Positions 35,551 through 53,946 of a stretch of 64,000 nt of DNA are shown here, in pieces. The stretch comes from Alphaproteobacteria bacterium (GTDB lineage Bacteria; Pseudomonadota; Alphaproteobacteria; SP197): the NCBI GenBank assembly GCA_965228895.1, contig OZ245842.1, positions 2,016,001-2,080,000 on the forward strand. Direction: 5' to 3'. A program made the translations under genes and the position numbers. Positions within the stretch are counted from its first letter, which is position 1. Each line of letters begins with the position of its first letter. The notes below the pieces were generated by a model. The model was given only the letters and a program-made list of their open reading frames with translations, did no database searches and was not told the DNA's origin.

Positions 35551-35641
35551 GGAGAGGTGGCCGAGTGGTCGAAGGCGCTCCCCTGCTAAGGGAGTATGGG
35601 TCAAAAGCCCATCGAGGGTTCGAATCCCTTCCTCTCCGCCA
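35551..35641 (+). tRNA. tRNA-Ser(GCT)
   Basis: Acceptor GGAGAGG/CCTCTCC+GCCA, D-loop CCGAGTGGTCGAAGG, anticodon arm CTCCC-CTGCTAA-GGGAG, long variable arm, GGTTCGAATCC. Confidence 0.97.
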
Positions 35642-35794
35642 CTCCTAACTTATTGATGTTTATGGTTTAACAGGACTGCCTCGTACGCCGGGCGCTGGCG
35701 GCTTTTCTTTGCTGCGCCTGCTCGACACAATGCGCGGGCGCCGCTCCGGTTACGGGTGCGGACAAAAGAATGTCCAGAATGCGGGAGGCCAGAC

Positions 35795-36736
35795 GTGACA
35801 ACGACGACCGATGAAGACCTTGCCATCGCGTATGAAGCCATGAAAGCCGTGCCGTTTCTGGCGTCGGTCAATCCGGGCGCGTGCACGATCGAACGCCTGC
35901 ACGGTCTGACCAACAAGGTCTACCGGGTCGACACGCCGGACGGCAGCTACTGTCTGAGGGTGCCCGGCGACGGCACCGAAGGTTTCATTGATCGTTCGGT
36001 CGAACGGGTCAACGCACGCGCGGCGGCCGCGGCCGGTGTCAGCCCCGAGGTGCTCTATTTCGGCGACGACGCGCTGATGGTGACGCCGTTTCTCGGCGAC
36101 ACGACGACGATGTCGCAGGAGCTACTGCAGACGCTGCCGGGTGCGCCGTCGCGCGCCGGCGAGGCTTTTCGTAAGCTGCACACCTCAGGCGAGACGTTCG
36201 AGTTCCGGTTCGAACTGTTCGCGATGATCGACGAGTATCTGGCGCATCTCGACAAGCTCGGCGTGACCGAGCTGCCCGACGGTTACCACGAGGCGGTTGC
36301 CGAGGCGCAGGCGGTGCGCGAGGCGCTCGACGCGCATGAGATGCCGCTGGCCGCCTGCCACTGCGATCCCATGGTCGAAAACATGCTGGATGACGGCAAG
36401 CGCATGTGGATCATCGACTGGGAGTATTCGGGCATGAATGATCCCTTGTGGGATCTCGGTGACTTCTCCGTCGAAGCGGGCTTCAACGCCGAGCAAGACC
36501 GCGAGATGATGGAAGCCTATTTCGGCCGCGCGCCGACGGACTTTGAGACGGGCCGCATGGTGCTCTATAAGGCGATGTGCGATCTCCTGTGGACGCTGTG
36601 GGGCCTCATCCAACACGCCAACAAGAACCCCGTCGACGATTTTTGGGCCTATGCCATCAACCGTTTCGAGCGGTGCAAGAAGCTGATGAATGATCCGTCG
36701 TTCAAGGGCCACGTCGCCGCGGCTCGCGCGGGCTGA
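35795..36736 (+). CDS. Choline/ethanolamine kinase family phosphotransferase
   Basis: GGGAGG RBS before GTG 35795; GLTNKVYR, LRVPG.GT...IDR, Brenner motif CHCDP..EN, IIDWEYSGMNDP.WDLG. Confidence 0.88.
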   Translation: MTTTTDEDLAIAYEAMKAVPFLASVNPGACTIERLHGLTNKVYRVDTPDGSYCLRVPGDGTEGFIDRSVERVNARAAAAAGVSPEVLYFGDDALMVTPFLGDTTTMSQELLQTLPGAPSRAGEAFRKLHTSGETFEFRFELFAMIDEYLAHLDKLGVTELPDGYHEAVAEAQAVREALDAHEMPLAACHCDPMVENMLDDGKRMWIIDWEYSGMNDPLWDLGDFSVEAGFNAEQDREMMEAYFGRAPTDFETGRMVLYKAMCDLLWTLWGLIQHANKNPVDDFWAYAINRFERCKKLMNDPSFKGHVAAARAG

Positions 36737-36777
36737 GTAAGGCACGGGCGGACGCAACACGAAGGTGTCGTTGCCGC

Positions 36778-36795
36778 TGTCACTATGTGACAATC
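36778..36795. promoter_or_regulatory. Palindromic operator upstream of the ABC importer operon
   Basis: TGTCAC-TAT-GTGACA(ATC); 17/18 identical to 48709-48726; TTGACA hexamer 11 bp downstream (36807-36812). Confidence 0.65.
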
Positions 36796-37158
36796 GCGCG
36801 CATTTCTTGACAGACAACCTGACAGGACCGAACATTCGAGGGCAGAAAAACGCAACGTCTTCTGCCGTCGTGCCAAGGTTGGCCATGACAGGATGCCAAG
36901 CGGTCGGACATAGGTTTCGGCCCGGGGAATGGGGGAGGTTTGGCGGACACGGCCGCATCGTTGTTGACGTGCGAGTCACGTAGAGCAGGGGCTGAGATCT
37001 CCTGTCGCGATTGGTTGGTTCCCGAACCCGTCGGTTACCAGGCTTTTTATCGAAGCAGTGTTGTTTTGCAGCGGATGTTGCCGTTTTCGGCGACGCCCAC
37101 GCGTGCTGTCGCGTAGGCGTGCGCCTCCGTCAGCTCAACAGAGGGAGTGAAGAGCACC

Positions 37159-38247
37159 ATGTCGAAGAAGAATAAATCGAACCCCGTTGCGGGGAAGGGG
37201 ACGTCACGCCGCCAGGTTCTCAAGGGAGCCGGTGGCTTGGCCACGGCCGGCGCGGTCAGCGCCCTGGGTTTCCCCGCGATCGCGCAGTCCAAACCCGATC
37301 AGCTTGTCATTGCCTCGGGCGGCGGTGCTCTCGATGAGGCCTACAAGGCCGCCTATTTCGACTCGTTTACCGAGAAGACGGGCATCGAGATCATCACCGC
37401 GCCCTATGCCGGCCTTGCCAAGGTGAAGTCGATGATCGAGGCCGACAACGTCGATCTCGATGTTCTGAACATCGACGCCGCCGAGGCGCCTGTGGCCGGC
37501 AACAACGGCTGGTTGGAGCCGATCGACTGGGGGCTGACCGACCGCAGTGCTGTGCTGCCGGCGGCAGCCTGGGATGACCATGTCTATGCCGAGGTCGCGG
37601 CCAAGGTCGTCGCCTGGAACACCGACAGCTTCGGTGACAACCCGCCGCAGGGTTGGGTCGACATGTGGGACATGGAAAAGTTCCCGGGTCGGCGCAGCTT
37701 GTGGAAACAGGCGTTCCAGACACTGGAGGTCGCGCTCATGGGTGACGGCGTGCCGAAGGACCAGATCTACCCGATCGATGTCCAAAAAGGCCTTGCCGCG
37801 CTCGACAAGATCAAGCCGGAGTTGATCTGGTGGGAATCCGGCGGCCAGTCCGCCCAGTTCCTGATCGACGGCGAAAGCGATGTTGGCTCGACCTGGAACG
37901 GCCGCGTCTATCAGCCGAAAGTCGACGGCGCGCCTGTCGACTACACGTTCAACGACGCACTCTTCGTGTCCGGTGCGTGGTGTGTCGTGAAGGGCGCCGG
38001 CAATGTCGGCTGGTCGATGGAGTTCATCGCCCACACGCTGGAACCCGAACGTCAGGCGATCTATTCCGAGAACATCCCCTACGGGCCGGTGGTGCCGGCG
38101 GCGTTGGAGTACATTCCCGCCGACCGTTTGCCGCTGCTGCCGAGTTCGGCCGAAAACATCGACAAGGGTGTGTGGTCGGACTTCCAGTTCTGGGCCGCAA
38201 ACGGTGAAGAAGTCATCAACGAGTTCAACGAGTGGCTTCTGAGCTAA
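37159..38247 (+). CDS. ABC transporter substrate-binding protein (PotD/PotF-like), Tat-exported
   Basis: Tat motif SRRQVLK, FPAIAQ cleavage region, DMWDMEKFPGRR, LEVALMGDGV, WNGR. Confidence 0.88.
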   Translation: MSKKNKSNPVAGKGTSRRQVLKGAGGLATAGAVSALGFPAIAQSKPDQLVIASGGGALDEAYKAAYFDSFTEKTGIEIITAPYAGLAKVKSMIEADNVDLDVLNIDAAEAPVAGNNGWLEPIDWGLTDRSAVLPAAAWDDHVYAEVAAKVVAWNTDSFGDNPPQGWVDMWDMEKFPGRRSLWKQAFQTLEVALMGDGVPKDQIYPIDVQKGLAALDKIKPELIWWESGGQSAQFLIDGESDVGSTWNGRVYQPKVDGAPVDYTFNDALFVSGAWCVVKGAGNVGWSMEFIAHTLEPERQAIYSENIPYGPVVPAALEYIPADRLPLLPSSAENIDKGVWSDFQFWAANGEEVINEFNEWLLS

Positions 38248-38285
38248 TCATCACATGCCCGCGACAAAAATAAGCGGCGGGGTCG

Positions 38286-39164
38286 ATGGCAAGTGAGAGC
38301 CATATGACGACAAAGGCCTCGGGCAGGGTGTGGAGCCCTGCCCGAGGTTACTTTGTGATCTTGTCGCTGCCGGTTCTGTTCCTGCTGCTGTTCTTCCTGT
38401 GGCCGCTGTTCACGGTGGTCACCCGCAGTTTCGGGGTCGACGAACCGTTCTTCGTCCATTTCCTGACCGTCTTCGAGCGCTCGTCCTATATCCGGGTCCT
38501 GGGCTACACCTTCCAGGTTGCCGCCACCGTAACCGTGCTGTGCCTCTTAATCGCCTACCCGGTGGCGGCCCTGATCGCGCGCCTTAAGGGTGGCTGGTTG
38601 CAGATTTCGTTTGCCCTCATCCTGGTGCCGTTCTGGACCAGCACGGTCATCCGCACCTATGCGTGGATGGTGCTGTTTCAACGCAAGGGCGTCATCAATG
38701 GGTTTCTGATCGATCTCGGCCTGGTCGATACGCCGTTAAGGCTGATGCACAACAACATCGGCGTGCATATCGGCATGGTGCACATCATGCTGCCCTTTAT
38801 GCTGCTGCCGTTGATCAGCGCGTTCCGCAACATCGATCCCAGCTACATGCGCGCCGCCGGCGTGCTCGGCGCCAATCCGATCCGTGCCTTCTGGCATGTC
38901 TATTTGCCGCTATCCATGCCGGGCGTCAGCGCCGGCGTGGCGCTGGTCTTCATCACCTCGCTAGGCTTCTACATCACACCGGCGCTATTGGGCGGCGCCC
39001 AGAACATGATGGTCGCCGTCCTGATCGAGCAGCAGGTCTCGATCACGGTGAACTGGGAACTGGCCTCCGCGCTGGCCTCGTTGTTGCTGATCCTGACCGT
39101 CGCGCTCTACATCGTTTATGACCGCGTGGCGCGCCGCGCGGGCGCCGGTGGGGTATTGGAATGA
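38286..39164 (+). CDS. ABC transporter permease (PotB-like)
   Basis: PFWTSTVIRTYAW, LPFMLLP, AAGVLGA..., GFYITPALLGG. Confidence 0.9.
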   Translation: MASESHMTTKASGRVWSPARGYFVILSLPVLFLLLFFLWPLFTVVTRSFGVDEPFFVHFLTVFERSSYIRVLGYTFQVAATVTVLCLLIAYPVAALIARLKGGWLQISFALILVPFWTSTVIRTYAWMVLFQRKGVINGFLIDLGLVDTPLRLMHNNIGVHIGMVHIMLPFMLLPLISAFRNIDPSYMRAAGVLGANPIRAFWHVYLPLSMPGVSAGVALVFITSLGFYITPALLGGAQNMMVAVLIEQQVSITVNWELASALASLLLILTVALYIVYDRVARRAGAGGVLE

Positions 39165-39973
39165 CGCGGTGGGCGACGGCAGGGCGCGTTGCGAAGATCG
39201 TCATGATCGGGTTCGCGGCACTTGTGCTGCTCTATCTCGTCATGCCGACCTTCGTCATCGTGCCGATGTCGTTCTCCGACAAACTCTACCTGAGTTTCCC
39301 GCCGACCGAATGGTCGTTCCGCTGGTACGAGGCCATGGCCGATCGCGTCGACTACCCGCAGGCGCTGTGGAACAGCATCAAGATCGGTGTGCCCGTCGCG
39401 CTTCTGGCGACGACCTTCGGCACGTTGGCGGCGCTCGGCGTCGTGCGCGGCCGGTTTTTTGGCGCCCGTCCGATGTCCGCGCTTGTCATCGCACCTTTGA
39501 TGCTGCCCCAGATCATTCTGGCCATCGGCCTCTATCCGGTGATGGCGAAACTCGGCATGGCCGGCACCTATCCCGGTGTCGTGCTCGGCCATACGGTGAT
39601 CTGCATTCCACTTGTCTTCATCACCGTCGCGGCATCGTTGAAAGGCTACCACCCGGCCTATGAGTACGCGGCGATGACCATGGGCGCGGGGTGGTGGCGC
39701 ACGTTCTGGTACGTCACCTTTCCGATGATCCGGGTCGGCGTCATTGTCGGGGCGATCCTTTCCTTCACCTTCTCGTTCGACGAATTGATCATTGCGCTTT
39801 TCCTGACCAGTCCGGAGACCCGAACCTTGCCCCGCCTGTTGTGGGAAGACCTTCGCCAGTACGTCACGCCGATCATCGCGGCGGCGACCACTCTTGTCTT
39901 GTGTATCTCGTTCGCGCTGTTCGGCGCGCTCGCGGTTCTGCAAAAACGTATGCAACGGGACCAGACGCCATGA
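39161..39973 (+). CDS. ABC transporter permease (PotC-like)
   Basis: PMSFS...FPP..WSFRWY, AAMTMGA, FSFDELIIALFL, TLPR. Confidence 0.9.
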   Translation: MTRWATAGRVAKIVMIGFAALVLLYLVMPTFVIVPMSFSDKLYLSFPPTEWSFRWYEAMADRVDYPQALWNSIKIGVPVALLATTFGTLAALGVVRGRFFGARPMSALVIAPLMLPQIILAIGLYPVMAKLGMAGTYPGVVLGHTVICIPLVFITVAASLKGYHPAYEYAAMTMGAGWWRTFWYVTFPMIRVGVIVGAILSFTFSFDELIIALFLTSPETRTLPRLLWEDLRQYVTPIIAAATTLVLCISFALFGALAVLQKRMQRDQTP

Positions 39974-41049
39974 CCGGGCAGGGCGCGCGGATCGAATACC
40001 GGGACATCGCCAAGTCCTACGGGGCGGTACAGGCGCTGACGCCAACCACGCTCGATATCGAGCCTGGTGAGTTCTTCTCGATCATCGGACCCAGCGGTTC
40101 CGGCAAGACAACCCTGCTGGGCGTCACCGCCGGCTACATACCGCCCACCGGCGGGGAGATACTGGTCGACGGCAAGAACGTTGTCGGCGTGCCGCCGTTC
40201 CAGCGCAACATCGGCATGGTTTTTCAGAACTACGCGCTCTTCCCGCATATGAGTGTCGGTGACAACGTGGGTTTTGCGCTCAAGATGCGCGGTGTGCCGA
40301 AGTCAGAGGCCGCCGAGCGTGTCGCGCGCATGCTGGACCTGGTGCGTCTTGGCGACATGGCCAACCGCAGGCCGAGCCAGTTATCCGGCGGCCAGCAGCA
40401 GCGCGTCGCGTTGGCGCGCGCCGCCGTCTACGACCCGCTTTTGCTTCTCATGGATGAACCGTTGAGCGCGCTCGACAAGAACCTGCGCGAAGCCATGCAA
40501 GACGAGATCAAGCAGTTTCAGGCAGCGCTCGGCTCGACCGTGCTCTACGTCACCCATGATCAGGCCGAAGCGGCCGCGATGTCGCACCGGATCGCGATCA
40601 TGAATCATGGCCGTGTCGCTCAGGTCGGCTCGCCACGCGATCTCTACGAACATCCGGTCGACCGATTCGTCGCCAGCTTCCTCGGTGAAGCCAACCTTTT
40701 CGACCTGACCGAACTCACCGCCCACGGCAACGGTGCGCGCGCCGTGACGACCGAAGGATTTGTGCTGCATTCGGCCACGGCGCCCAACGGCGATGCCCAA
40801 TGCGCCTGCGTACGGCCGGAGACCGTCAACGTGTCCGATAGGCCGGTGGAAGCCGACAACAGCGTTGAGGGGCGGATCGTCGACGCAACGTATACGGCCG
40901 GCAGCCTGCGCTACCGCATCGAAATTGCGCCCGAGGTGATCATGACGAAGCGGACGCCGTCGGTCCGGGGCGAGGCATTGATGCCTGAAGGAACAAAGGT
41001 TCACGTCTCCTGGCGGGCCGAAGACACCTTGCTCGTGAACAACGACTAG
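39970..41049 (+). CDS. ABC transporter ATP-binding protein (PotA-like)
   Basis: GPSGSGKT, VFQNYALFPHM, LSGGQQQR, LLMDEP, VTHDQ, TOBE-like C-terminus. Confidence 0.93.
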   Translation: MTGQGARIEYRDIAKSYGAVQALTPTTLDIEPGEFFSIIGPSGSGKTTLLGVTAGYIPPTGGEILVDGKNVVGVPPFQRNIGMVFQNYALFPHMSVGDNVGFALKMRGVPKSEAAERVARMLDLVRLGDMANRRPSQLSGGQQQRVALARAAVYDPLLLLMDEPLSALDKNLREAMQDEIKQFQAALGSTVLYVTHDQAEAAAMSHRIAIMNHGRVAQVGSPRDLYEHPVDRFVASFLGEANLFDLTELTAHGNGARAVTTEGFVLHSATAPNGDAQCACVRPETVNVSDRPVEADNSVEGRIVDATYTAGSLRYRIEIAPEVIMTKRTPSVRGEALMPEGTKVHVSWRAEDTLLVNND

Positions 41050-41060
41050 GGAGCCAACAC

Positions 41061-41834
41061 ATGCCCTTCACCGACAAGAAGGCGGTGGTGACCGGCGGCG
41101 GCCGTGGCATGGGCCGCAGTCATGCCGAGGCATTTGCGGCACGCGGCGCTGCGGTGGGGGTCATCGACCTTGATGGCGCATTGGTTGATCAGGCGGTCGC
41201 CACGATCCGCGAAGCAGGAGGCGTTGCTCATGGTGTCAAATGCGACGTCGCCGACGTCGCCGCGATCACCGAGGCGATCGCAAGTCTTGAGCGGTCTCTG
41301 GGCGGCATCGACATTCTGGTGAACAACGCCGGTATCGATGAAATGCGCGATATCGAGGAGATCGATGAGGCGAGCTTTGACCGTATGTTCGGCGTGCACG
41401 TCAAGGGGACGTTCTTTGCGACCCGTGCCGCCGTGCCCGGCATGAAGGCGCGAGGTGCCGGCAAGATCGTCGTGACGGCCTCGACAGCAGGCATGACAGG
41501 GATTGCGGGTGACTCCCACTATTCAGGCGCTAAAGCGGCTTTGATGGGCTTGACCAAGGCGTGGGCTAAGGAGCTGGCGCCCTTCGGCATCCATGTCAAT
41601 GCGGTGGCGCCCGGCGCGACCATGACCGAGATGGTCATGACCAAACTGCCGACGCGCGAAGAATCCATGGCGCGTGTGCGCCAGCGCCTGGATGCGGGCG
41701 CGGTGCCGTTGGGTCGTTATGCGGATCCATCGGAGATAACCGCCGTCGTTTTGTTCCTGGCCTCCGACGAGGCAAGTTTTATCACCGGACAGGTCATCAG
41801 CCCCAATGGCGGCGAAGTGATCGTCGGTATCTAG
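41061..41834 (+). CDS. SDR family NAD(P)-dependent oxidoreductase
   Basis: TGGGRGMG, NNAG, YSGAK, VNAVAPG. Confidence 0.92.
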   Translation: MPFTDKKAVVTGGGRGMGRSHAEAFAARGAAVGVIDLDGALVDQAVATIREAGGVAHGVKCDVADVAAITEAIASLERSLGGIDILVNNAGIDEMRDIEEIDEASFDRMFGVHVKGTFFATRAAVPGMKARGAGKIVVTASTAGMTGIAGDSHYSGAKAALMGLTKAWAKELAPFGIHVNAVAPGATMTEMVMTKLPTREESMARVRQRLDAGAVPLGRYADPSEITAVVLFLASDEASFITGQVISPNGGEVIVGI

Positions 41835-41850
41835 GCAAGGGAGAACTACC

Positions 41851-42933
41851 GTGGAACTCGGACTCTTTTCGCTTCAGACCCAGCGCGATGTCGCGAAGCC
41901 CATTAAGGAAGTCTACGACGAAACGATTGACCTCGTCCGTCTTGCCGAGGACATCGGTTTCGACACCGCCTGGTTGACCGAGCACCATTTCGGCAATTAC
42001 AGCATGTGCCCGTCACCGCTCATTATGGCGTCGAACCTGGCGGCGCTGACGACGCGCATCAAGCTGGGCATGGCCGTGCTGGTGCTGCCGCTCTACAACC
42101 CCCTGCGGGTGCTTGAAGAGATCGGCATGGTCGATCAGCTTTCCGACGGGCGTCTGGTGATCGGCTATGGCTCCGGCTATCAGGCCTTTGAGTTCGAGCG
42201 CTTCGGCCTCGACCTCGCCGAAAACTGGGCCATTACCCACGAGACCATGGACATTCTGGAGATGGGTATAGCCGAGGGGCGGGTCGCCTATGACGGCACG
42301 TACTACAAGATCCCGGAGACACCGATCGGCATTCCGGTGATGCAGAAACCGCATCCTGAGGTCTTTACGGCGGGCAACGAGCCGGCTTATCTCGCGCGGG
42401 CGGCCAAGGCCGGCTACATCCCCTTCGTTACCGTCGGCGGCAACGGCACCGATGCCTTGATTGCCGTGCGCGAACACATCGCCAAGAACTTCGCGCAGGC
42501 GGGCCAGACTGGTCCATTGCCGTTCGCCATCAACCGCTCGGTCTATGTCACGGACAGCAAGGACGATGCGCGCGATGTCGCCGAACGGGTGCTCTATACC
42601 GCGCGGCTGGTCATGGCGTTTCGCGGCGGTTACGAAAAACTCGACGGCATCGAGGTCATCCCGCAGCCTTATGAAAACGAGCCTGATCTCGACACGATTA
42701 TCGAGAACCTGCCGATCGGCGATCCGGAGAGCTGCGCCGAACAGATTGCAGGCGAAATCAAGGCGACCGGTGCTTGCCACTACAGCATGTTCGTCCAGTT
42801 CGGCGGCCTCGACCACAAGCGGGCGCGACGCTCATTGGAGCGAATTGGCGCCGAGGTCCTGCCGCTTGTCGACAAGGCTGTCGGTGGTCTGAAGGAGTTC
42901 GGTCCAAGTTCGGTTATGTCGGCGGCACGCTAG
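41851..42933 (+). CDS. LLM-class (luciferase-like) flavin-dependent oxidoreductase
   Basis: AEDIGFDTAWLTEHHF, LPLYNPLRV.EE, DQLSDGRL..G.GSGY. Confidence 0.9.
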   Translation: MELGLFSLQTQRDVAKPIKEVYDETIDLVRLAEDIGFDTAWLTEHHFGNYSMCPSPLIMASNLAALTTRIKLGMAVLVLPLYNPLRVLEEIGMVDQLSDGRLVIGYGSGYQAFEFERFGLDLAENWAITHETMDILEMGIAEGRVAYDGTYYKIPETPIGIPVMQKPHPEVFTAGNEPAYLARAAKAGYIPFVTVGGNGTDALIAVREHIAKNFAQAGQTGPLPFAINRSVYVTDSKDDARDVAERVLYTARLVMAFRGGYEKLDGIEVIPQPYENEPDLDTIIENLPIGDPESCAEQIAGEIKATGACHYSMFVQFGGLDHKRARRSLERIGAEVLPLVDKAVGGLKEFGPSSVMSAAR

Positions 42934-43056
42934 GGTTTTGTGCCTGCGCAGACCAGTGCCGGCCGACGCCCCCGCCCGGCAACCAATGGCAGCATCCTCG
43001 GGTCGGCCGGGCGGGGGCGTGGGCCGGTGATGCCTCGGTCGCCGCCAGGCAAAAAG

Positions 43057-44763: not shown

Positions 44764-44767
44764 CGGG

Positions 44768-45727
44768 TCACCGGAACAGGAAACCGTCGGGAAGGGGATC
44801 GCAGTCCTCGACCATCAGGGTCGAGAACGCGCTCAGATAGGCTTCGCCGGCAACACGCGGACGTATGGCCGCGCGACCGTTTTCGTGGAGCACCTCATCG
44901 ATGCGACACCGGTAGTGCGCGCCCAGCACACTCTCCGCGATGAAGTCGTCGCCAACGTTGAGCTTGCCGGCGGCGTGCAGTGCGGCAAGGCGCGCACTGG
45001 TGCCGGTACCGCACGGCGATCGGTCGAACTTGTTGCTTTCCAAAACCACGAGGTGACGGGCATGTCTGTCATCGTCATCGCGAAAAAACAGGACCGAGCC
45101 GACCGGCTCGTCGACGGCTGCGTTGAGCGACGCCTTGATCGCGTTGCCCAAGCGGCAGAGTTCACCGGCGTTGTCGGGTTCGATGGGCCAGTTGCGCCCG
45201 GCCGTATCGACCAGCGCGAAGCGGCCGCCGCAGCAGGCTATGGTGGCGTCGACGGGGCCTATGCCATCGACGTCGACGGTTATGCCGTCAGTCTCGACAT
45301 AAGCAGGGACGTTGGCGATGGACGCGGTGACCGCACCGTCCATTGCTTTGCTCACGTCGACACCGACAATGCCGGCGGGTGTCTCCAAAGTGAAATGGCC
45401 TGGGCCGGATGTAAGATCGACTTGGCCGGTTGCCGCGAGCGTACGCGCAAGGCCGATGGTCGCATGGCCGCACATGTCGAGATAGACATAGGACGAGATG
45501 AAGAACGCACCGAAGTCGGCCTCACGGCTGTCGGTCATCACGGCGGCGACCATGGCCGCATGGCCGCGCGGCTCGTGTATCAACTGGCCCCGGAGACGGT
45601 CGTGGCGGGCCTTGAAATCGTCGCGACGCGCCAGCACGGTGTCGCCCTCCAACGGTGGCAACCCACCCATAATGGCGCGCGTCGGATGACCCACCGTGTG
45701 GGTGTCGATGACTTGAAAGGCCTGCAT
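44768..45727 (-). CDS. Proline racemase / hydroxyproline epimerase family protein
   Basis: IDTHT.G.PTR, EPRGH, both catalytic Cys motifs MCGH and DRSPCGTG. Confidence 0.88.
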   Translation of the reverse strand: MQAFQVIDTHTVGHPTRAIMGGLPPLEGDTVLARRDDFKARHDRLRGQLIHEPRGHAAMVAAVMTDSREADFGAFFISSYVYLDMCGHATIGLARTLAATGQVDLTSGPGHFTLETPAGIVGVDVSKAMDGAVTASIANVPAYVETDGITVDVDGIGPVDATIACCGGRFALVDTAGRNWPIEPDNAGELCRLGNAIKASLNAAVDEPVGSVLFFRDDDDRHARHLVVLESNKFDRSPCGTGTSARLAALHAAGKLNVGDDFIAESVLGAHYRCRIDEVLHENGRAAIRPRVAGEAYLSAFSTLMVEDCDPLPDGFLFR

Positions 45728-45824
45728 GGTTCTCCGATGCCGGCAAGCGGCGGTTCCACGGCAGGGTATGCTAAGGAGCCGCTACACATGGATCAAGGCA
45801 ACAAGCATGAGGGAGCAGGATTGC

Positions 45825-46607
45825 ATGCGTGAAAACAGGATTCGGAAGATTTGGGCCGAGGGCGGCACGGTCTTTAACGGCTGGCTGGCGACGCCCAGCA
45901 GCGTCACCGCCGAGGTCATGGCGCGCCAGGACTGGGACAGCGTCACAATCGACCTGCAGCATGGCCTGGTCGACTATCCCGCGGCTGTCACCATGCTGCA
46001 GGCGATCTCGCAGACCGACACGGTGCCGCTGGCGCGCGCGCCATGGAACGAGCCGGTCATGATCCAGAAGCTGCTGGATGCCGGCGCTTACGGCATCATC
46101 TGCCCGATGATCAACAGCCGCGAGGAGGCCGAGCGTTTTATCGGCGCGTGCCGCTATCACCCGGACGGCTACCGCAGTGTCGGTCCGATCCGTGCGGCCA
46201 TGTATGCCGGCGCTGATTACATCCCGAACGCCAACAAGACCGTCTTGGCATTGGCGATGATCGAGACGGCGCAGGCTGTCGAGCGGCTGGACGAAATCCT
46301 GACCACACCGGGTCTGGACGGCATCTTTGTCGGCCCGTCCGATCTATCGGTCAGCTTGGGCGAAGCGGCCGGCTTCGATCCTGAGTTTCCCGTCGTCATG
46401 CAGGCGATCGAAAAGATTGCCGAGCGTTGTCAACATCATGGCATACCCGCCGGCATCCATACGGGATCGGTCGCCTATGCGCTCAAGATGCAGGCGATGG
46501 GTTACTGCTTCATCACGCTGCTCAGCGAACTGCGTTTGATCCAGTGGGCCGCCGGCAATGCCATCGCGGCGTTCCGCGCCGGTGAGACGCAGGTCGATGC
46601 CCCTTAG
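45825..46607 (+). CDS. HpcH/HpaI aldolase family protein
   Basis: IDLQHG, LDAGAYGIICPM, G.RS.GP, MIET, FVGPSDLS. Confidence 0.9.
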   Translation: MRENRIRKIWAEGGTVFNGWLATPSSVTAEVMARQDWDSVTIDLQHGLVDYPAAVTMLQAISQTDTVPLARAPWNEPVMIQKLLDAGAYGIICPMINSREEAERFIGACRYHPDGYRSVGPIRAAMYAGADYIPNANKTVLALAMIETAQAVERLDEILTTPGLDGIFVGPSDLSVSLGEAAGFDPEFPVVMQAIEKIAERCQHHGIPAGIHTGSVAYALKMQAMGYCFITLLSELRLIQWAAGNAIAAFRAGETQVDAP

Positions 46608-47865
46608 TGACGGGCCGGGTAGGGCCGGCCATGTCACCGTGGTCGGCGCCGGCATCGTCGGCATCTGTACGGCGAGCTGGCTGGTCCGCGCCGGCTTCGA
46701 CGTCACCGTGCTCGACGAGGATGAGCCGGGCATGCGGTGTTCGTTCGGCAACGCCGGGGGCATCTGTCCGGGCTCGTGCGTGCCGCTTGCTATGCCCGGT
46801 ATGGCACGCAAGGTGCCCGGCTGGCTGCTCGATCCGGAAGGTCCGTTGTTCATCCGGCTCGCTTATCTGCCGCGCGCGCTGCCGTGGCTGCTGCGCTTTG
46901 TGGCCGCCGGACGGCCAGACAGGATCGGCGCGATTGCCAATGCCATGCGCGCGCTCCACGAACCGACCATCGATCGCTACCGTTCACTGGTCGCGTGGGC
47001 GGGGTGCGAGTCCTTGCTGGTCGAGCGCGGCCAGCTCTTTCTCTACGAAAGCCAAGCGGAACTCGATGGCGACGCCCTTGGCCTGACGCTGCGCCGCGAA
47101 CGCGGCATCGAAGCAGAAGTTCTGTCGGCCGACGAACTACGTCAGTTGGAGCCCGCACTCGACCACCGCTTTCGCCACGCGGTCTTTCTGCCAGGTCAGG
47201 CGCAGTGCCTGAATCCCCACCGATTGGTGCGCGAACTTGCCGCCCAATTCGTTGCCGACGGTGGCCGTATCGATCGGTCGCGCGTGATGGCCTTTCATGC
47301 CCAAGACGGCGCGATTGAATCGCTGGAGACGGCGGATGGATCCCGCGGGGTCGAGACAGTCGTTCTGGCGGCAGGCGCCTGGTCGGCGAGGTTGTTGGCG
47401 ACCCTTGGAATCCGCGTGCCGCTGGAGGCCGAGCGGGGCTATCACGTTACGGTGGCCGCCGAGACTGACCGTGCGCCGCGTATCCAGGCGGCATGGTCGC
47501 GTCGCAAGTTTGTCGTCACACCACAGGAAGGTGGTATGCGCTTTGCCGGCACCGACGAATTCGCCGGTCTTGACGCGCCACCCGATGAAAGGCGCGCGAT
47601 GACCCTGTTGCGTCACGGGCGCGATATGGTGCCCGGGCTTGACGATGCGACCTACACGACATGGATGGGGCATCGTCCGGGAACGCCGGACAGCCTGCCG
47701 GTCATCGGCAGGGATCCGCGGTACGCCAACCTGATTCACGCCTATGGTCACGGCCATACCGGTTTGATGGGCGCATCGGTCACCGGTCACGTAATCGCCG
47801 ACATGTTGGCGGGCCATACGCCGGAGATCGACTTGGCCCCCTATGGCATTGAGCGTTTCAGCTGA
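46597..47865 (+). CDS. D-amino acid dehydrogenase (DadA-like FAD oxidoreductase)
   Basis: VVGAGIVG, SFGNAG, AAGAWS, ERGYH, WMGHRP.TPDSLPVIG, GHGH.G. Confidence 0.88.
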   Translation: MPLSDGPGRAGHVTVVGAGIVGICTASWLVRAGFDVTVLDEDEPGMRCSFGNAGGICPGSCVPLAMPGMARKVPGWLLDPEGPLFIRLAYLPRALPWLLRFVAAGRPDRIGAIANAMRALHEPTIDRYRSLVAWAGCESLLVERGQLFLYESQAELDGDALGLTLRRERGIEAEVLSADELRQLEPALDHRFRHAVFLPGQAQCLNPHRLVRELAAQFVADGGRIDRSRVMAFHAQDGAIESLETADGSRGVETVVLAAGAWSARLLATLGIRVPLEAERGYHVTVAAETDRAPRIQAAWSRRKFVVTPQEGGMRFAGTDEFAGLDAPPDERRAMTLLRHGRDMVPGLDDATYTTWMGHRPGTPDSLPVIGRDPRYANLIHAYGHGHTGLMGASVTGHVIADMLAGHTPEIDLAPYGIERFS

Positions 47866-47871
47866 CCTTGG

Positions 47872-48693
47872 TCAGGTTGATCGTTGATAGGCAAGCGAAA
47901 CCGCTTGCGCGGCTTTCAGGATGATCGGCTTCAGATCGCGTCTCGCCTTCGCCAAGGTGAAATCGTCGACATCAACCGTTAGCGCGACGGCGGCCACGGG
48001 CTGATTGGCGTAATCGAACACAGGCGCGCCAAGCGCGATGGCGCGGGGATGACACGCGCGATCGGTCAGGCTGTAGCCGAGTTCGCGGGTCTGCGACATC
48101 GCCGCCATGATGGCGTCCGTTTCGACAATCGTATGTTTGGTGATCGGGAGCCGTGGGCTGGTGGCGATCAGGTCGAAGGCGCTGCGTTGGGGCATGAAGG
48201 CCAGAATTGCCAGACCGGTTGGCGAACAGAAGGCCGGTTCGCGTACGCCCACCGACGGACCCTTCACCAACGAGAGTCGCTTTTCGGCCCCGGCCATGCT
48301 GATCAGGACGACACATTCGTTACCGTTGAGCACGCTCAACTCGAGCTGATGACCGCATTCGTCGGAAACATTCTGCAGAATAGGGAAGGCGCACGTGACC
48401 AGGGGGTCGTTGCCCAGATAGGCAACCGACCAGCTCAACACCTTGGACGAAAGCCTGTAGTGTCGGGTTCGCCGGTCCTGTACCAGATAGCCGGCGCTGA
48501 CCAGTGTCGTCAGAAGCCGTCGCGCGCCGCTGATCTCCAGACCGCTTAGCTGGACGATTTCGGTGAGCGACAGCTCACGGTGTCCAACGTCGAAGCACTC
48601 CATCACCCGCAAACCCTTAAGGAGGGTCTTGGCGAGGTTCGACGATGAGGGTCTACCGGGACCCAAGTCAGGCTCTAGCGTCAGGTCGGGCAC
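47872..48693 (-). CDS. IclR family transcriptional regulator
   Basis: KTLLKGLRVMECF...LSLTEI...RRLL.TL...GYL HTH; PAFCSPTGLAILA, ALGAPVFD; GGAGA RBS before GTG 48693 (alternative ATG 48714). Confidence 0.9.
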   Translation of the reverse strand: MPDLTLEPDLGPGRPSSSNLAKTLLKGLRVMECFDVGHRELSLTEIVQLSGLEISGARRLLTTLVSAGYLVQDRRTRHYRLSSKVLSWSVAYLGNDPLVTCAFPILQNVSDECGHQLELSVLNGNECVVLISMAGAEKRLSLVKGPSVGVREPAFCSPTGLAILAFMPQRSAFDLIATSPRLPITKHTIVETDAIMAAMSQTRELGYSLTDRACHPRAIALGAPVFDYANQPVAAVALTVDVDDFTLAKARRDLKPIILKAAQAVSLAYQRST

Positions 48694-48706
48694 GTTGTTC
48701 TCCGCA

Positions 48707-48726
48707 ATTGTCATTATGTGACAATC
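48707..48726. promoter_or_regulatory. Palindromic operator in the iclR / glmL divergent region
   Basis: ATTGTCA-TTATG-TGACAAT inverted repeat; near-identical to 36778-36795. Confidence 0.65.
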
Positions 48727-48848
48727 ATAGTGCATATTTGTTGCGATGTCTCGGCTGCGGACCTAGCCTTTTGAACCGCAATGCCGCCTGCGTTGCGGCT
48801 GGGGGTTGTGTCCAGGCGTCCGATATTCGGGCTGACACGGGAGCTGAC

Positions 48849-50288
48849 GTGACAAACGCGAGGCGGACCAAGGATAGGGCTGACGTGTTCCTCAGCGGGG
48901 AACGTAGCTGGAGCCGTGGCCTTCTGATCGATGTGGGCTCGACGTTCACCAAGGTCATGGTGATCGCGCCAAGTGGCGCGATGGTGGGACGCGCACAAGC
49001 CCCGACGACGATTGACGATGATGTGATGGAGGGGGTCACCGCTGCCCTCGGCCACCTGCCTGAGGACGCGCGCGACGACATCGACTGGGCGCTTGCCTCA
49101 AGCAGCGCGGCGGGCGGCCTGCGTATGGCGTCGGTCGGGCTGACCGCCAATCTGTCCGGTCGTGCCGGCGCGTTGGCGGCGTTCGGTGCCGGCGCCAAGG
49201 TGATCGCCAACGAACATGGCTTCTTGGATGACGAGGCCGTCGGCAGGATCGATGCGGAAACGCCCCATCTCGTGCTGTTGTCCGGCGGTTTAGACGGCGG
49301 CAACCGAGAGGCGCTGCTGCACAATGCCCGCAAGTTGACGGCGCTGAAGTCGGCGCGCGGGTTCATCGTCGCGGGCAATGTCGACGCTGCCGGCGAAGCC
49401 GATGCTTTGCTCAAAGTTGGCGACCGCGACGTGCGTGTCGTCGATAACGTCTTCCCACGTGCCGGCGAGATCGCGATGACCGCGACACGCGAGGCTGTGC
49501 GCGACCTCTTTTTGCAACACATCACCCAAGCCAAGGGCCTGGATGGCCTGATGGAGACTTTCGCGACGGAATGCGAACCGACTCCCCTGGCGGTCAGCCG
49601 CGCTCTCGCGCATCTGCCCGGGGAGGGCGGGCCGGTGGTGTTTGTCGATTTGGGTGGTGCGACGACCGACGTGCACTCGTTGGGCGGCGTCCGTGACGAC
49701 CACAGAGCGGTCGAAGTGCCCGATCCCGAAGTGATGCGCACGGTCGAAGGCGACTTGGGCATGCGTTGGGGCGCACCGGGTACGGTCGGTGCCATGTCAT
49801 CGGCCGACAGAGCCGCCGCTGAGGCAGTCCTGGGCTGTGATCTCGAACGAGAGGCCGACAAGCGGCGTGAGTCGCCGTCCTTTTTGCCTCAGACCGACCA
49901 TGACCGCGCCGTCGACCGTGTCTTGGCCCAGGCTGGGGTCGCGACGGCGATCGAGCGCCATGCCGGCAAGGTGGTCGTCCGCCATCGGCCGTGGGGCGAC
50001 CGCTATCAGGTGACGGGCAAGGATCTTCGCCAGACGCGGATGCTGGTCGCGACCGGCGGTGCGTTTCGCTATGGCCGTGACCCCCACTTGATGGTCTGTA
50101 CGGCCCTCGATGCGATTGAAGGCGCCCAGTCGCCACGCACCCCGGCCATCGCCATCGACAATGCCTATGCCCTCTATGTCATCGGCTTGCTCGCCCGCCT
50201 GGCGCCGGACTTGGCGCGACAGGTTGCGGCCCAAGCCATCGTTACGCCCAATCCATCAAGCCGACATCAGGAGGCACGCGCATCATGA
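48849..50288 (+). CDS. GlmL/MutL family (glutamate-mutase-associated) actin-like ATPase, probable B12-enzyme reactivase
   Basis: IDVGSTFTK, SSSAAGGLRM, GGLDGGN, IVAGN, PTP, VDLGGATTDVHS, RTVEGDLGMR; GGGAG RBS before GTG 48849. Confidence 0.85.
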   Translation: MTNARRTKDRADVFLSGERSWSRGLLIDVGSTFTKVMVIAPSGAMVGRAQAPTTIDDDVMEGVTAALGHLPEDARDDIDWALASSSAAGGLRMASVGLTANLSGRAGALAAFGAGAKVIANEHGFLDDEAVGRIDAETPHLVLLSGGLDGGNREALLHNARKLTALKSARGFIVAGNVDAAGEADALLKVGDRDVRVVDNVFPRAGEIAMTATREAVRDLFLQHITQAKGLDGLMETFATECEPTPLAVSRALAHLPGEGGPVVFVDLGGATTDVHSLGGVRDDHRAVEVPDPEVMRTVEGDLGMRWGAPGTVGAMSSADRAAAEAVLGCDLEREADKRRESPSFLPQTDHDRAVDRVLAQAGVATAIERHAGKVVVRHRPWGDRYQVTGKDLRQTRMLVATGGAFRYGRDPHLMVCTALDAIEGAQSPRTPAIAIDNAYALYVIGLLARLAPDLARQVAAQAIVTPNPSSRHQEARAS

Positions 50289-52036
50289 CAGGCAAACTTG
50301 AAGCCTATCTTCCCCAGGATTGTCCTGACGGTCTGGCCTTGCTCGAAGAAGGTCGGCGGCTCGGCGATGACGTCACGGTGGGTCGCAGCCTTCTGTGCGA
50401 AACCCATGGCGTTCGTTCGGAGGTCGAATACAAAAAGAAAATGGTCGAGGAGGGGCGCCTGATGACGTCCCTCAACATCGGCATGCAGACCTGGGCCGAT
50501 ACCGCCCGTGCGTTTGAGAAGATCTGGGACGAATCGGACAGACGTGGCTTTCGCATTGACCGCTATCAAATGCAGATGGATCGGCGTATGGGCCTGCCGC
50601 CTGAGCTTTGGGACCGCGCGGCCAAGGAGACCGGTCCGATGCTGGAAACCAAGGAGGACTGGTACGCGACCGCCCACACGGTGCCGATCCAGCCGCAGCT
50701 TGGCGACATGATGATCGGCTCGCCCATGTCGGTCAGCAACGCGCGCAACGCACTTGAGGCCGGCGTCAACTATATCGGCAACATGTCGCAGTTTGCCTGG
50801 AAGTATCCGGGCTGGCCGGGCGACGATGTCGAGCAGATGGCTGAAATGGTCAAGGCCTTGGGCCTGATGGCGGCCAAGCGCGACGACGACGCGATGATGC
50901 AGTCCTATCTGGAAGACGGCTATCCCGCGACCTTCAAGGACTATTGCTCCTATATCGGCTGGGCGCTCTTTGAGCGTTACCTTATCGATGACGTGATCGG
51001 TGCGCGCCTGTCGATCGCCTATGGCGGCCTGACCCACAATCCGGTCAGCAAGACAGCGGTGATCCTGGCGCTTGAGAAGATTAAGCCGGAAGGCACGTAC
51101 AACTCTTTCTATCATTGCAACACGACGGCCCATTCGCCGGAGATCGACGAGAACTTTGCCGTCGTCTCAATCGATGACCTCTACATCATGTTGGCCCAGC
51201 TCAAGACCAAGAGCGGCGCGGCCACGTTGTCGATCCCCGTTACAGAAGCGCTACGTGTGCCGTCCTGGGAAGAAATCGTTCAGGTTCAAACGGTCGCTCA
51301 TCGAGTCGCGCGCGACGCGCCACGGCTGATGGAGAGTTTCAATTGGGATCATATCGAGGCGATCAGCGAACGCATGATCGATGGCGGGCGCCGATTCTAC
51401 GCCAACATTTTGGAAGGCCTCACCGATCTGGGTGTCGACATGCGCGATCCCATGCAGCTCCTGCTGACGATCCGCCGCATGGGCGCGGCGACGATCGAGA
51501 ATCGTTGGGGTGTCGGCGAACTGCCGATATCGGATGCGGAAATGTATGTGCCGGAAGTGCCGACCGATACCTATCTCGACTATGTCGAACGGCGTTCGCG
51601 GGTCAAAAAGATTTTCAGCTCGGCGGGCATTCCCAAAAAGGAGCAGATCAGGCTCGTGGTCGGCTCCACCGACATCCATGAGTACGCGATGTTCCTCATC
51701 GTCGAGGGACTCACCATGGCCGGCATTCAGCCGGTTGTTGCCGGCACCAGTGTCGATCCCGATGAGTTTGCCGATTTAGCGCTGGAAGCGGGCGCCACGG
51801 CGATCCTGGTCTCGACCCACAACGGCATGGCGTTGACCTATGCGCGGCAATTGCATGACGAGGTTGTTGCCCGCGACCTCGATGTGACCATCGCGATGGG
51901 CGGCACGCTCAATCAAGATGTCGATGGCGAATCGACGCCGGTGGACGTTAAGGACGACCTGCGCGCGATGGGCGTCCACGTTTGCAGCGATGTCTCCGAT
52001 CTCTTGAACCTGATCGGCGCGACGTCACCAAGTTAG
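50285..52036 (+). CDS. Cobalamin-binding protein; putative single-chain AdoCbl-dependent mutase of unknown substrate
   Basis: C-terminal DIHEYA-x41-STH-x26-GG B12 motif; N-terminal barrel-sized domain with PVTEALRVPSWEE; ATGA overlap with the glmL-like gene. Confidence 0.75.
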   Translation: MTGKLEAYLPQDCPDGLALLEEGRRLGDDVTVGRSLLCETHGVRSEVEYKKKMVEEGRLMTSLNIGMQTWADTARAFEKIWDESDRRGFRIDRYQMQMDRRMGLPPELWDRAAKETGPMLETKEDWYATAHTVPIQPQLGDMMIGSPMSVSNARNALEAGVNYIGNMSQFAWKYPGWPGDDVEQMAEMVKALGLMAAKRDDDAMMQSYLEDGYPATFKDYCSYIGWALFERYLIDDVIGARLSIAYGGLTHNPVSKTAVILALEKIKPEGTYNSFYHCNTTAHSPEIDENFAVVSIDDLYIMLAQLKTKSGAATLSIPVTEALRVPSWEEIVQVQTVAHRVARDAPRLMESFNWDHIEAISERMIDGGRRFYANILEGLTDLGVDMRDPMQLLLTIRRMGAATIENRWGVGELPISDAEMYVPEVPTDTYLDYVERRSRVKKIFSSAGIPKKEQIRLVVGSTDIHEYAMFLIVEGLTMAGIQPVVAGTSVDPDEFADLALEAGATAILVSTHNGMALTYARQLHDEVVARDLDVTIAMGGTLNQDVDGESTPVDVKDDLRAMGVHVCSDVSDLLNLIGATSPS

Positions 52037-52097
52037 CGTGAAGAAAGCCCCTTCGACTGGCATATCGAGCGGTTGACAACCAACGTATGGGGGCTGG

Positions 52098-52544
52098 TTA
52101 GCCGTTCGCAAGCTGCAAGCTGGCCCGGCCATGCACGACAACACGTTTCTTCGTGGCGCGTGAGGGACGCTTGGTTCTCCGTACGGTCGACGACACATCG
52201 ACCACGGTATCGTCGGCATGTTCCGTTTCACCATCGCCAAACGTGACGAGGTTGGTTGGTTCGGCGACGGCAAGCAGGTCGGCAGCAAAGGTCGAACGGA
52301 TCTGCGCAAAGGCAAGGCGGGCCGTTGGCCAATCGGCTGACCAGGTAACCACCGGTGTTGACGTCCCGTCCGCCGTCTTGGCGATGACGGCAGTCATGCG
52401 CTTGTCGTCCAGGGACCAAGTGTAGCCATGGGCCGGTGGCTGACCATCGAGCGGGTTGCCAAGGCAATCTTCCAGCAGCGCCCTGAAGCTTTCCGAGCGA
52501 CCATCGCGGATACGAAGCTCTATCTGCCAAGACGTTTCGTGCAT
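52098..52544 (-). CDS. Hypothetical protein, weak similarity to ABM/quinol monooxygenase-like domain (possibly degenerate)
   Basis: MHETSWQIELRIRDGRSESFRALLE...YTWSL...FAADLLAVAEPT.LVTFG resembles the ABM dimeric alpha/beta barrel pattern. Confidence 0.45.
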   Translation of the reverse strand: MHETSWQIELRIRDGRSESFRALLEDCLGNPLDGQPPAHGYTWSLDDKRMTAVIAKTADGTSTPVVTWSADWPTARLAFAQIRSTFAADLLAVAEPTNLVTFGDGETEHADDTVVDVSSTVRRTKRPSRATKKRVVVHGRASLQLANG

Positions 52545-53930: not shown

Positions 53931-53946
53931 TGGCACGGTTCATGCA
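53931..53946 (+). promoter_or_regulatory. Candidate sigma-54 (-24/-12) promoter
   Basis: TGGCACGGTTCATGCA versus consensus TGGCACGNNNNTTGCW; GG/GC spacing exact, one mismatch. Confidence 0.45.

Follow-up and report, generated by a model that had tools for sequence, protein, structure and literature searches.

What compound is handled by an alphaproteobacterial gene island that combines an ABC importer, several oxidoreductases, a proline-racemase homolog and an aldolase with a cobalamin (B12) enzyme, and which reaction does that enzyme carry out? The island lies at 35.8-52.0 kb of a 64,000-nucleotide (nt) stretch of contig OZ245842.1 (assembly GCA_965228895.1, positions 2,016,001 to 2,080,000), which is called the window and whose own coordinates are used here. 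The island is a genuine orphan regulon, conserved and open to experiment, with an uncharacterized B12 enzyme family at its center. Judged from sequence, the balance tips slightly toward a single IclR regulon of about 36.8-52.0 kb for an imino or amino acid that would undergo radical B12-dependent isomerization, and the substrate we infer is of the proline type, probably a hydroxylated imino acid. The genes are taken as one functional unit because the GlmL/B12 pair co-occurs with the rest of the set in two gene orders and because a predicted operator is shared. All gene families named in a preliminary description of this DNA were recovered at 35.8-52.0 kb by open reading frame (ORF) listing and family scans, and the features are as follows.

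35551-35641, plus strand: tRNA-Ser(GCU), found by ARAGORN and by the Rfam tRNA model (60.4 bits); left border of the island
35756-36736, plus strand: choline/ethanolamine-kinase-like kinase of the APH fold (PF01633, 76.8 bits; PF01636)
36778-36794: predicted operator, copy 1, TGTCACTATGTGACAAT, with the palindrome TGTCAC-TAT-GTGACA, about 365 nt 5' of the start of the next gene
37159-38247 (alternative start 37147), plus strand: periplasmic solute-binding protein (SBP) of the SBP_bac_8 family (PF13416, 109.5 bits)
38286-39164, plus strand: PotB/PotH-like ABC permease (PF00528; NF007044, 185.7 bits, under the cut-off)
39161-39973, plus strand: PotC-like ABC permease (PF00528), overlapping the first permease gene by 4 nt
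39970-41049, plus strand: PotA-like ABC ATPase with a TOBE domain (PF00005, PF08402; TIGR01187, 348 bits)
41061-41834, plus strand: short-chain dehydrogenase/reductase (SDR; PF13561, 192 bits)
41851-42933, plus strand: luciferase-like flavin-dependent monooxygenase (LLM; PF00296, 208 bits)
43057-44763, minus strand: choline-dehydrogenase-like FAD oxidoreductase of the GMC family (PF00732, PF05199)
44768-45727, minus strand: Pro_racemase-family enzyme (ProRac; PF05544, 283.7 bits)
45807-46607 (ORF open from 45726), plus strand: class II pyruvate aldolase of the HpcH/HpaI type (PF03328)
46597-47865 (ORF open from 46558), plus strand: DadA-like FAD-dependent (D-)amino/imino-acid dehydrogenase (PF01266, 223.7 bits)
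47872-48735, minus strand: IclR-family regulator (PF09339, PF01614), divergent from GlmL-B12
48709-48725: predicted operator, copy 2, TGTCATTATGTGACAAT, in the IclR/GlmL control region, overlapping the 5' end of the called iclR ORF
48885-50288 (ORF open from 48645; GTG at 48885 the likely start), plus strand: GlmL/MutL-type ATPase (PF13941, 396 bits)
50285-52036, plus strand: B12 protein of 583 residues with a C-terminal B12-binding domain

The preliminary description had presented these genes as one run. This layout has to be corrected, as the GMC gene and that of ProRac, the two-Cys proline-racemase homolog, lie on the minus strand; the genes therefore form five transcription units. The two permease genes, the second permease and ATPase genes, the HpcH and DadA-like genes, and the GlmL and B12 genes are predicted to be coupled in translation, or nearly so: the ATG of the ATPase gene at 39970 overlaps the stop of the second permease gene, the DadA-like start overlaps the HpcH stop, and GlmL overlaps the start of the B12 gene by 4 nt. 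Two plus-strand ORFs (42940-44943 and 44708-45832) were rejected as genes, since they have no family match and the true genes lie on the opposite strand.

Co-occurrence of homologous GlmL/B12 pairs with the other enzymes had been named beforehand as the test of a common pathway, and such pairs do occur together with LLM, GMC, ProRac, HpcH, DadA-like, IclR and importer genes, in two gene orders. The comparison drew on 14 loci from genomes, 80 from metagenomes and 15 regions of sampled genomes, all searched with the window proteins (loci are numbered with L, genomes with G). Conservation was counted over the six loci in which the B12 protein is at least 74% identical to that of the window and the sequence extends 4 kb or more upstream. 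Four of them (L005, L048, L050 and L068; B12 protein 77-80% identical) retain all of the ABC ATPase, LLM, ProRac, GMC, HpcH, DadA-like, IclR, GlmL and B12 genes. The ATPase is 72% identical in these loci, GMC 72-74%, HpcH 76-80% and the DadA-like enzyme 66-73%, and LLM, present in all four, is merely 56-61% identical. The first gene order is that of L050, which has the same arrangement as the window. In the second (L005, L048 and L068) the ProRac-GMC pair is inverted, SDR is missing, and the importer, LLM, ProRac, GMC, HpcH and DadA-like genes are collinear, with short gaps, downstream of an operator-bearing promoter. Shorter loci are consistent as far as they reach, with DadA-like, IclR and GlmL genes in L004 and IclR and GlmL in L003 and L006. 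The IclR gene adjoins GlmL-B12 in L003, L004, L005, L006, L048, L050 and L068, and in L055 at 41% identity. The closest relative, G402, keeps the tRNA-Ser gene, the kinase gene and everything through ProRac; G401 also keeps the SBP gene and both permease genes, with no kinase gene, and SBP is 79-93% identical in these two genomes.

Two genes behave differently from the rest. The kinase, which the preliminary description had counted into the pathway, is encoded upstream of operator copy 1, is kept in G402 (85% identical) and has no counterpart in G401 over the 9.8 kb ahead of the SBP gene. It was rejected as a core member on this distribution; conserved in the closest relative only, it probably lies outside the unit. 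Its best NCBIfam match is a GntI-like kinase, at 144 bits versus a cut-off of 357. SDR occurs in L050 (83%) and G402 (87%); the collinear clusters L005, L048 and L068 lack it. The kinase and SDR would be accessory, and the core set is put at 12 genes. A further peculiarity was seen in LLM, which is 60% identical in G402 (L135 2388-3467) versus 87-97% for the neighboring genes; this looks like allele replacement or very fast divergence of a single gene.

The kinase/SBP and IclR/GlmL spacers share TGTCAyTATGTGACAAT, a 17-nt sequence with a 6-3-6 palindrome. The whole 5.5-Mb genome holds exactly two matches to the palindrome at up to two mismatches, and the reversed control none; at up to three mismatches the window holds two, versus 0.02 expected from window shuffles. 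G401 and G402 carry the palindrome ahead of the SBP gene, and L003, L050, L048, L068, L004 and L006 carry it between IclR and GlmL, while L005 has a variant with five mismatches that is visible in alignment only. The IclR/GlmL copy sits within a block of about 35 nt that is conserved in six loci, and the flanks of this block diverge. Three copies occur in the more distant L055 (B12 protein 60%, IclR 41% and SBP 42% identical to the window), before GlmL and between the SBP and IclR genes, and the enzymes encoded in between are different: a class-III aminotransferase and two 3-oxoacid CoA-transferase subunits. IclR is the sole copy of its type in the genome. The distribution of the palindrome gives good in-silico grounds for placing the importer operon and GlmL-B12 in one regulon through the predicted operator, from which IclR would act on both.

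We then turn to the B12 protein itself. Its GlmE-like TIM barrel spans residues 12-436, and a GlmS-like B12-binding domain with the motif D463-I-H465-E-Y-A spans residues 450-581. Sequence searches gave matches confined to the last ~120 residues, all of them B12-binding domains, and the Pfam B12-binding score is low (26.5 versus a cut-off of 32.1), though the fold agrees. No Pfam match was obtained for residues 1-450 at E ≤1e-3; PF06368 (Met_asp_mut_E) did not match the barrel, the MM_CoA_mutase barrel domain was not matched, and no Pfam match was found to the aminomutase barrel families PF09043 and PF16554. The B12-family profile matched only B12 domains in the PDB, and HHalign against a GlmS-GlmE fusion aligned only the B12 domain. 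An AlphaFold model from a 33-relative alignment (pLDDT 91.4, pTM 0.90) retrieves B12 isomerases in Foldseek, with the barrel nearest to GlmE, then lysine 5,6-aminomutase, and the C-terminal domain nearest to GlmS. The cobalamin-binding signature of class I (His-on) adenosylcobalamin isomerases is DxHxxG...SxL...GG. D463, H465 and G539-G540 are invariant in the 33 sequences, and the Gly of DxHxxG is Ala in the window protein and [AG] across the family. The modeled fold together with the motif points to a His-on isomerase, namely a fused GlmE/GlmS-like enzyme whose barrel family has no Pfam or NCBIfam model; full-length relatives are all single chains of 575-610 residues.

A pyridoxal-phosphate (PLP)-dependent aminomutase of the ornithine or lysine kind (OAM/LAM) was considered and rejected. 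In the KamDE/OraSE aminomutases the PLP-anchoring Lys lies in the B12 domain, and no invariant or near-invariant Lys follows residue 440 in the 33-sequence alignment. This absence speaks against the PLP aminomutase type and would allow a secondary-amine substrate. The aminomutases resemble the system of the window in that the ornithine system, too, has a GlmL-related accessory protein (NCBIfam NF040744), and differ from it in the barrel families and in the Lys. GlmL of the window, presumed to be the reactivase or chaperone of the B12 enzyme, scores 229.4 bits with TIGR01319, above the cut-off of 204, and 359 bits with the equivalog NF040745, below that of 475. The genome also encodes a PduO-type adenosyltransferase and three cobalamin riboswitches.

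A second B12-family gene is present in the same genome (G000:C1:1561366-1563084, locus L002). Its product is 35% identical to that of the window and belongs to a different clade (clade B below); it has no GlmL, a 437-residue zinc-type alcohol dehydrogenase gene follows directly, and a gene for an AphA-like regulator lies upstream. Elsewhere in the phylum, L142 (1474-3405, minus strand) encodes a 643-residue glutamate-mutase fusion with an N-terminal GlmS-like B12 domain and a C-terminal GlmE, which is the reverse of the domain order in the B12 family of the window.

The family is widespread. An exhaustive HMMER search of 1.84 billion representatives (clusters at 50% identity) found 513, 298 and 114 proteins at E ≤1e-3, ≤1e-10 and ≤1e-30, respectively, and members occur in 15 of the 401 genomes sampled from the class of the window and in 3 of 400 from a Firmicute class. 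They are known from soil, marine and gut bacteria. The public names of 240 relatives are generic ("methylmalonyl-CoA mutase cobalamin-binding subunit", "cobalamin-dependent protein", "hypothetical"), and ESM Atlas clusters are unnamed or labeled by the B12 domain only. A FastTree phylogeny of 94 members, a quick method whose deep branches are not to be over-read, gave five groups, in which the B12 gene has the following company.

Clade A (Firmicutes), 11 members: GlmL with 9, a pyrroline-5-carboxylate (P5C) reductase-like (P5CR-like) gene with 6, ProRac with 3
Clade B (including the genome's own paralog), 23 members: GlmL with none, P5CR-like gene within 200 nt of 12
Clade C, 6 members: P5CR-like gene adjacent to 3, ProRac adjacent to 1 (L099)
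Clade D (the window), 25 members: GlmL adjacent to 15, IclR with 10, ProRac with 4, DadA-like gene with 5
Clade E, 29 members: GlmL adjacent to 23, SDR directly upstream of 22, class-III aminotransferase with 8

Within 200 nt of the B12 gene, GlmL is found at 45 of the 94 loci and a P5CR-like gene at 3/11, 12/23 and 3/6 loci of three deep clades. ProRac directly abuts a B12-family gene in L071 as well as L099; in L071, a fragment outside the tree, a 55%-identical ProRac gene lies directly upstream of a clade-D B12 gene. Genes for 2-oxoglutarate (2OG)-dependent hydroxylases flank several members. Elsewhere in clade D the neighbors are CoA ligase, CoA transferase, hydratase or aminotransferase genes. 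The clade A operon takes the form activase-GRE-(SNF)-GlmL-B12-OrtA-OrtB-P5CR-EamA, where GRE is a glycyl-radical enzyme, and the Firmicute GRE matches HplG (7vua) over its full length at 1088 bits, versus 455 bits for HypD. HplG is described as opening trans-4-hydroxy-D-proline to 2-amino-4-ketopentanoate, the substrate of OrtAB (PMC13450708).

Some individual loci are worth recording. Two clade B loci of the window's class (L039 8318-11747 and L042 8380-11878) carry a three-gene module of PhyH hydroxylase, B12 protein and P5CR-like enzyme, followed in L039 by a gene of the PEP-mutase/isocitrate-lyase family. Activase, a 785-residue GRE, GlmL and B12 protein are encoded contiguously in Firmicutes at L150 (9052-15714) and L120 (3321-14387); L120 has the HplG-like, OrtAB and P5CR-like genes, and L150 has IclR and 2-oxoacid:ferredoxin oxidoreductase genes nearby instead. 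No nicotinate-type context was found in the Firmicute loci compared, the three members from the 400 genomes included.

The recurrent partners of the family thus fall into four classes: P5CR-like and DadA-like enzymes; ProRac; PhyH, TauD and perhaps LLM; and transaminases of non-alpha amines. Because these make or reduce cyclic imines, epimerize imino acids, hydroxylate, or transaminate non-alpha amines, and because the company in gut Firmicutes is that of a hydroxyproline operon, hydroxylated or cyclic C5-C6 amino acids are suggested as substrates. The link drawn in the preliminary description to hydroxyproline-type chemistry, on the strength of the racemase and D-amino-acid dehydrogenase, is strengthened by these contexts. 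Isomerizing cleavage of a C-N bond in a hydroxy-imino acid would fit the contexts at least as well as the carbon-skeleton rearrangement assumed in the preliminary description, and two chemistries remain for the B12 step, a glutamate-mutase-like carbon shift or a 1,2-shift of a ring nitrogen.

A pathway can be outlined on this basis, in which we infer not only the substrate but also the order of steps, the B12 reaction and the roles of LLM and GMC. The importer would take up a zwitterionic amino or imino acid. The preliminary description had called it a Tat-exported PotD-like ABC importer; the importer stands, and so does the twin-arginine (Tat-type) signal, with the motif SRRQVLK in SBP, whereas the likeness to PotD is distant, at just 37 bits, and the closest solved structures of SBP are 4i1d, the gamma-aminobutyrate (GABA) sensor Atu4243 (4eq7) and the opine binders MotA and AgtB. 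SBP would thus belong to a GABA/opine-binding branch. The substrate, a proline-type ring with a hydroxyl group, may be imported in hydroxylated form or be tailored by LLM or GMC. ProRac would next invert C2 to give the D-isomer. It is taken to be of the epimerase/racemase type because both catalytic Cys residues are retained (Cys86 in MCGH and Cys239 in SPCGTG, both aligned with the catalytic Cys of solved members), and a whole-genome search gives a single match, so that it is the sole member of its family in the genome.

The adenosylcobalamin enzyme, maintained by GlmL, would then carry out a radical 1,2-rearrangement of the ring or of a ring product. The preferred form of this step is an isomerizing ring opening, by which a vicinal amino alcohol of the 4-hydroxyproline type would yield a 2-amino-4-oxo acid (D-2-amino-4-oxopentanoate): the ring nitrogen would undergo a 1,2-shift onto the hydroxyl-bearing carbon, and collapse would open the ring to the amino-ketone, with the same net reaction as that of HplG, of which the enzyme would be the B12 counterpart. 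The DadA-like flavoenzyme could produce a 2-oxo acid (2,4-dioxopentanoate) by oxidation of the D-amino or imino acid, and the class II HpcH aldolase, with SDR where present, could cleave a 4-oxo- or 4-hydroxy-2-oxo acid to pyruvate and a C2 fragment. The closest solved structure to HpcH is the hydroxyketoacid aldolase of Sphingomonas, 6r62 (205 bits). The enzyme names describe families rather than orthologs because most of the enzymes score under curated equivalog cut-offs, as do the DadA-like enzyme (NF001933, 236.8 bits versus 383) and GMC (NF002550, 368 versus 605). This specific route from hydroxyproline to an aminoketone is put forward tentatively and is rather unlikely to hold. Slightly less likely still is the broader proposal, also drawn from sequence, that the family is a new class of single-chain, His-on, PLP-independent enzymes in which a radical 1,2-nitrogen shift opens hydroxylated imino acids or deaminates vicinal amino alcohols in amino acids.

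Aerobic hydroxyproline catabolism proceeds through 4-hydroxyproline 2-epimerase, D-hydroxyproline dehydrogenase, a pyrroline-4-hydroxy-2-carboxylate deaminase of the dihydrodipicolinate synthase (DHDPS) type and alpha-ketoglutarate semialdehyde dehydrogenase. The window resembles this system in having a two-Cys ProRac-family enzyme beside a dehydrogenase of the D-amino-acid oxidase (DAO) family. It differs in adding LLM, GMC, HpcH and B12/GlmL, in the type of transporter, and in the scores of ProRac. The HplG pathway offers another comparison. Firmicute members of the B12 family share operons with an HplG-like enzyme, OrtAB, a P5CR-like enzyme and ProRac, and the isomerizing ring opening of a vicinal amino alcohol proposed here is the HplG reaction (PMC13450708). 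Unlike in that pathway, the cofactor would be adenosylcobalamin, DadA and HpcH would follow in place of the OrtAB thiolase, and the genome of the window has no GRE or OrtAB: when all of it was searched by tblastn with the Firmicute GRE, OrtA and OrtB, no match was obtained at E ≤1e-15 and at least 60% coverage.

A number of observations speak against the pathway outlined above, some concerning its chemistry and others the coherence of the gene set. ProRac is under every NCBIfam equivalog cut-off (232 bits versus 556 for proline racemase, 202 versus 540 for 3-hydroxyproline dehydratase, and 223 versus 376 and 219 versus 450 for the hydroxyproline epimerases). SBP is of the PotD/GABA/opine type, which is not the kind known for hydroxyproline uptake, and LLM and GMC have no step in the proposed route. 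The downstream route is a guess, because the cluster lacks a DHDPS-type deaminase and an aldehyde dehydrogenase (family scans gave no match to either among the 14 cluster genes) and the genome lacks OrtAB and GRE. The nearest modeled fold, glutamate mutase, favors a carbon-skeleton shift over C-N cleavage, ring opening would be unprecedented for the architecture of the B12 protein, and the His-on B12 enzymes known to us are all mutases or aminomutases, not lyases. As to the gene set, the 79-nt divergent region between ProRac and HpcH (45728-45806) holds no copy of the palindrome, and thus the palindrome evidence leaves the ProRac and HpcH operons of the window outside. Two of the six close loci, L052 and L057 (B12 protein 74-80% identical), lack the set and keep GlmL only; the neighbors are TauD, amidase, TatD and M24 peptidase genes in L052, and FGGY kinase and sulfotransferase genes in L057. 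At 55-62% identity, GlmL-B12 is accompanied by CoA ligases, CoA transferases, enoyl-CoA hydratase and class-III aminotransferases; since it occurs with such other enzymes, the B12 step is not tied to ProRac, DadA and HpcH. Furthermore, kinship among the four full loci is fairly close, with L048 and L068 probably drawn from a single population, so that inheritance from a common ancestor accounts for part of the shared gene order. Because GlmL-B12 occurs with quite different enzymes at 55-80% identity, the gene combination is lineage-specific rather than a fixed pathway.

Among the alternatives, an appreciable minority chance attaches to the idea, already contained in the preliminary description, that the regulon is the same and the B12 enzyme is a carbon-skeleton mutase of the glutamate- or 2-methyleneglutarate-mutase kind. 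Its substrate would be an acyclic or branched dicarboxylate with an amino or oxo group, such as an analog of glutamate or 3-methylaspartate, and the ProRac-like epimerase, DadA and HpcH would turn the rearranged product into a 2-oxo acid and then cleave or decarboxylate it. The window shares with the glutamate mutase system (GlmE2-GlmS2 and GlmL/MutL) a TIM barrel, a Rossmann B12 domain, the His-on Asp-x-His motif that is typical of mutases, and an adjacent GlmL-family ATPase, which scores best with the methylaspartate-mutase model (359 bits versus 267 for the ornithine type). 2-Methyleneglutarate mutase of Eubacterium barkeri is a single chain of ~610 residues with a C-terminal B12 domain and an adjacent GlmL-like gene, and its partner isomerase is of the diaminopimelate-epimerase fold class, as is proline racemase. 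It is by architecture, and not by sequence, that the enzyme is likened to the B12 protein; domain order, GlmL-like neighbor and the fold class of the partner isomerase agree. Glutamate mutase, in contrast, consists of two subunits (E2S2), whereas the B12 protein is one fused 583-residue chain with the barrel first; the barrel has no sequence match to the GlmE family in Pfam or to any solved chain, DIHEYA stands in place of DxHxxG, and only the B12 domain aligns in HHalign. The neighbors are not methylaspartate-pathway genes: no methylaspartase or mesaconase-type gene was seen in any context scanned, and no GlmE is present in the whole genome. The P5CR-like, ProRac, 2OG hydroxylase and HplG/OrtAB neighbors of the family suggest amino acids that are cyclic or hydroxylated rather than dicarboxylates.

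It is distinctly unlikely that the island consists of independent modules kept together by descent, namely the importer with LLM and SDR, ProRac/GMC with HpcH/DadA for a hydroxyproline-like compound, and a separate IclR-GlmL-B12 unit with another purpose. The five transcription units, the ProRac/HpcH region without an operator, the presence of GlmL-B12 without the other enzymes in L052, L057 and many other contexts, and the restriction of the full set to loci in which the B12 protein is at least 77% identical are all in keeping with such modules. They are opposed by the operator, which joins the importer operon to GlmL-B12 across the genes between, by the collinear one-strand run behind an operator-bearing promoter in L005, L048 and L068, by the survival of the set through an inversion and the loss of SDR, and by ProRac genes that abut B12-family genes in unrelated clades. 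Very unlikely is an open-chain vicinal amino alcohol or omega-amino acid (4-amino-3-hydroxybutyrate, a carnitine-like compound or a hydroxylated diamino acid) that an enzyme like ethanolamine ammonia-lyase would convert to a methyl ketone: it would suit the GABA binders nearest to SBP, the choline-kinase-like and choline-dehydrogenase-like genes, the class-III aminotransferases that share 15 of the 94 family loci, and an acetoacetate-type product in L055, which has the operator, IclR and SBP in common with the window and pairs GlmL-B12 with the aminotransferase and 3-oxoacid CoA-transferase subunits, but known B12 eliminases are base-on with another architecture and none is among the 50 fold matches listed, the kinase is not conserved, and ProRac (the only copy in the genome) and DadA would be left without a role.

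The single regulon for an imino or amino acid, as preferred above, may also travel as an island, for which there are hints. The cluster begins at tRNA-Ser in both the window and G402. In G401 it is flanked by a gene for a phage-type integrase and by genes for T2SSE-type ATPases on both sides (L134 4115-5503 and 6441-7961; L005 12273-13703). The window itself contains no integrase and no further repeat of the tRNA 3' end. Straight after the B12 gene (52001-64000), GC content falls from ~0.63 to 0.56-0.60, and the genes there bear no relation to the cluster: two LuxR-type regulators, a CsgG-like protein, an AMP-dependent ligase, two GNAT proteins and several ORFs without family match. As to expression signals, two promoter-like sites were found versus 3.9 in shuffles, and 23 terminator-like sites versus 13.7 (sd 3.4), neither count being clearly in excess; the tRNA was the only match of the Rfam scan. 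A perfect 15-bp stem-loop at 38315-38349, 3' of the SBP gene and across the annotated start of the first permease gene, may be an mRNA-stabilizing or attenuating element between the two genes.

A literature search, beyond whose reach the primary HplG paper lay, found no account of the B12 family, of a B12 step in hydroxyproline metabolism or of what the B12 protein does in the HplG operons. To our knowledge, about a dozen isomerase and eliminase reactions of adenosylcobalamin are known, and new ones are rare. The family described here is compact, confidently modeled, widespread and equipped with its own reactivase, and it has no assigned reaction. The window provides an experimental handle on it, with a solute-binding protein, a regulator with a defined predicted operator and a full set of partner enzymes, from which it should be possible to identify the substrate. 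If the proposed chemistry is true, the B12 protein would be an oxygen-tolerant counterpart of the GRE HplG, and the organism would have a new aerobic B12 route from a hydroxyproline-type compound through the D-isomer and 2-amino-4-oxopentanoate to acetylpyruvate or 4-hydroxy-2-oxopentanoate, and on to pyruvate and a C2 fragment. A hydroxyproline-type substrate would add a B12-dependent branch to the turnover of collagen- and plant-derived imino acids, and would explain the B12 genes inside gut HplG operons.

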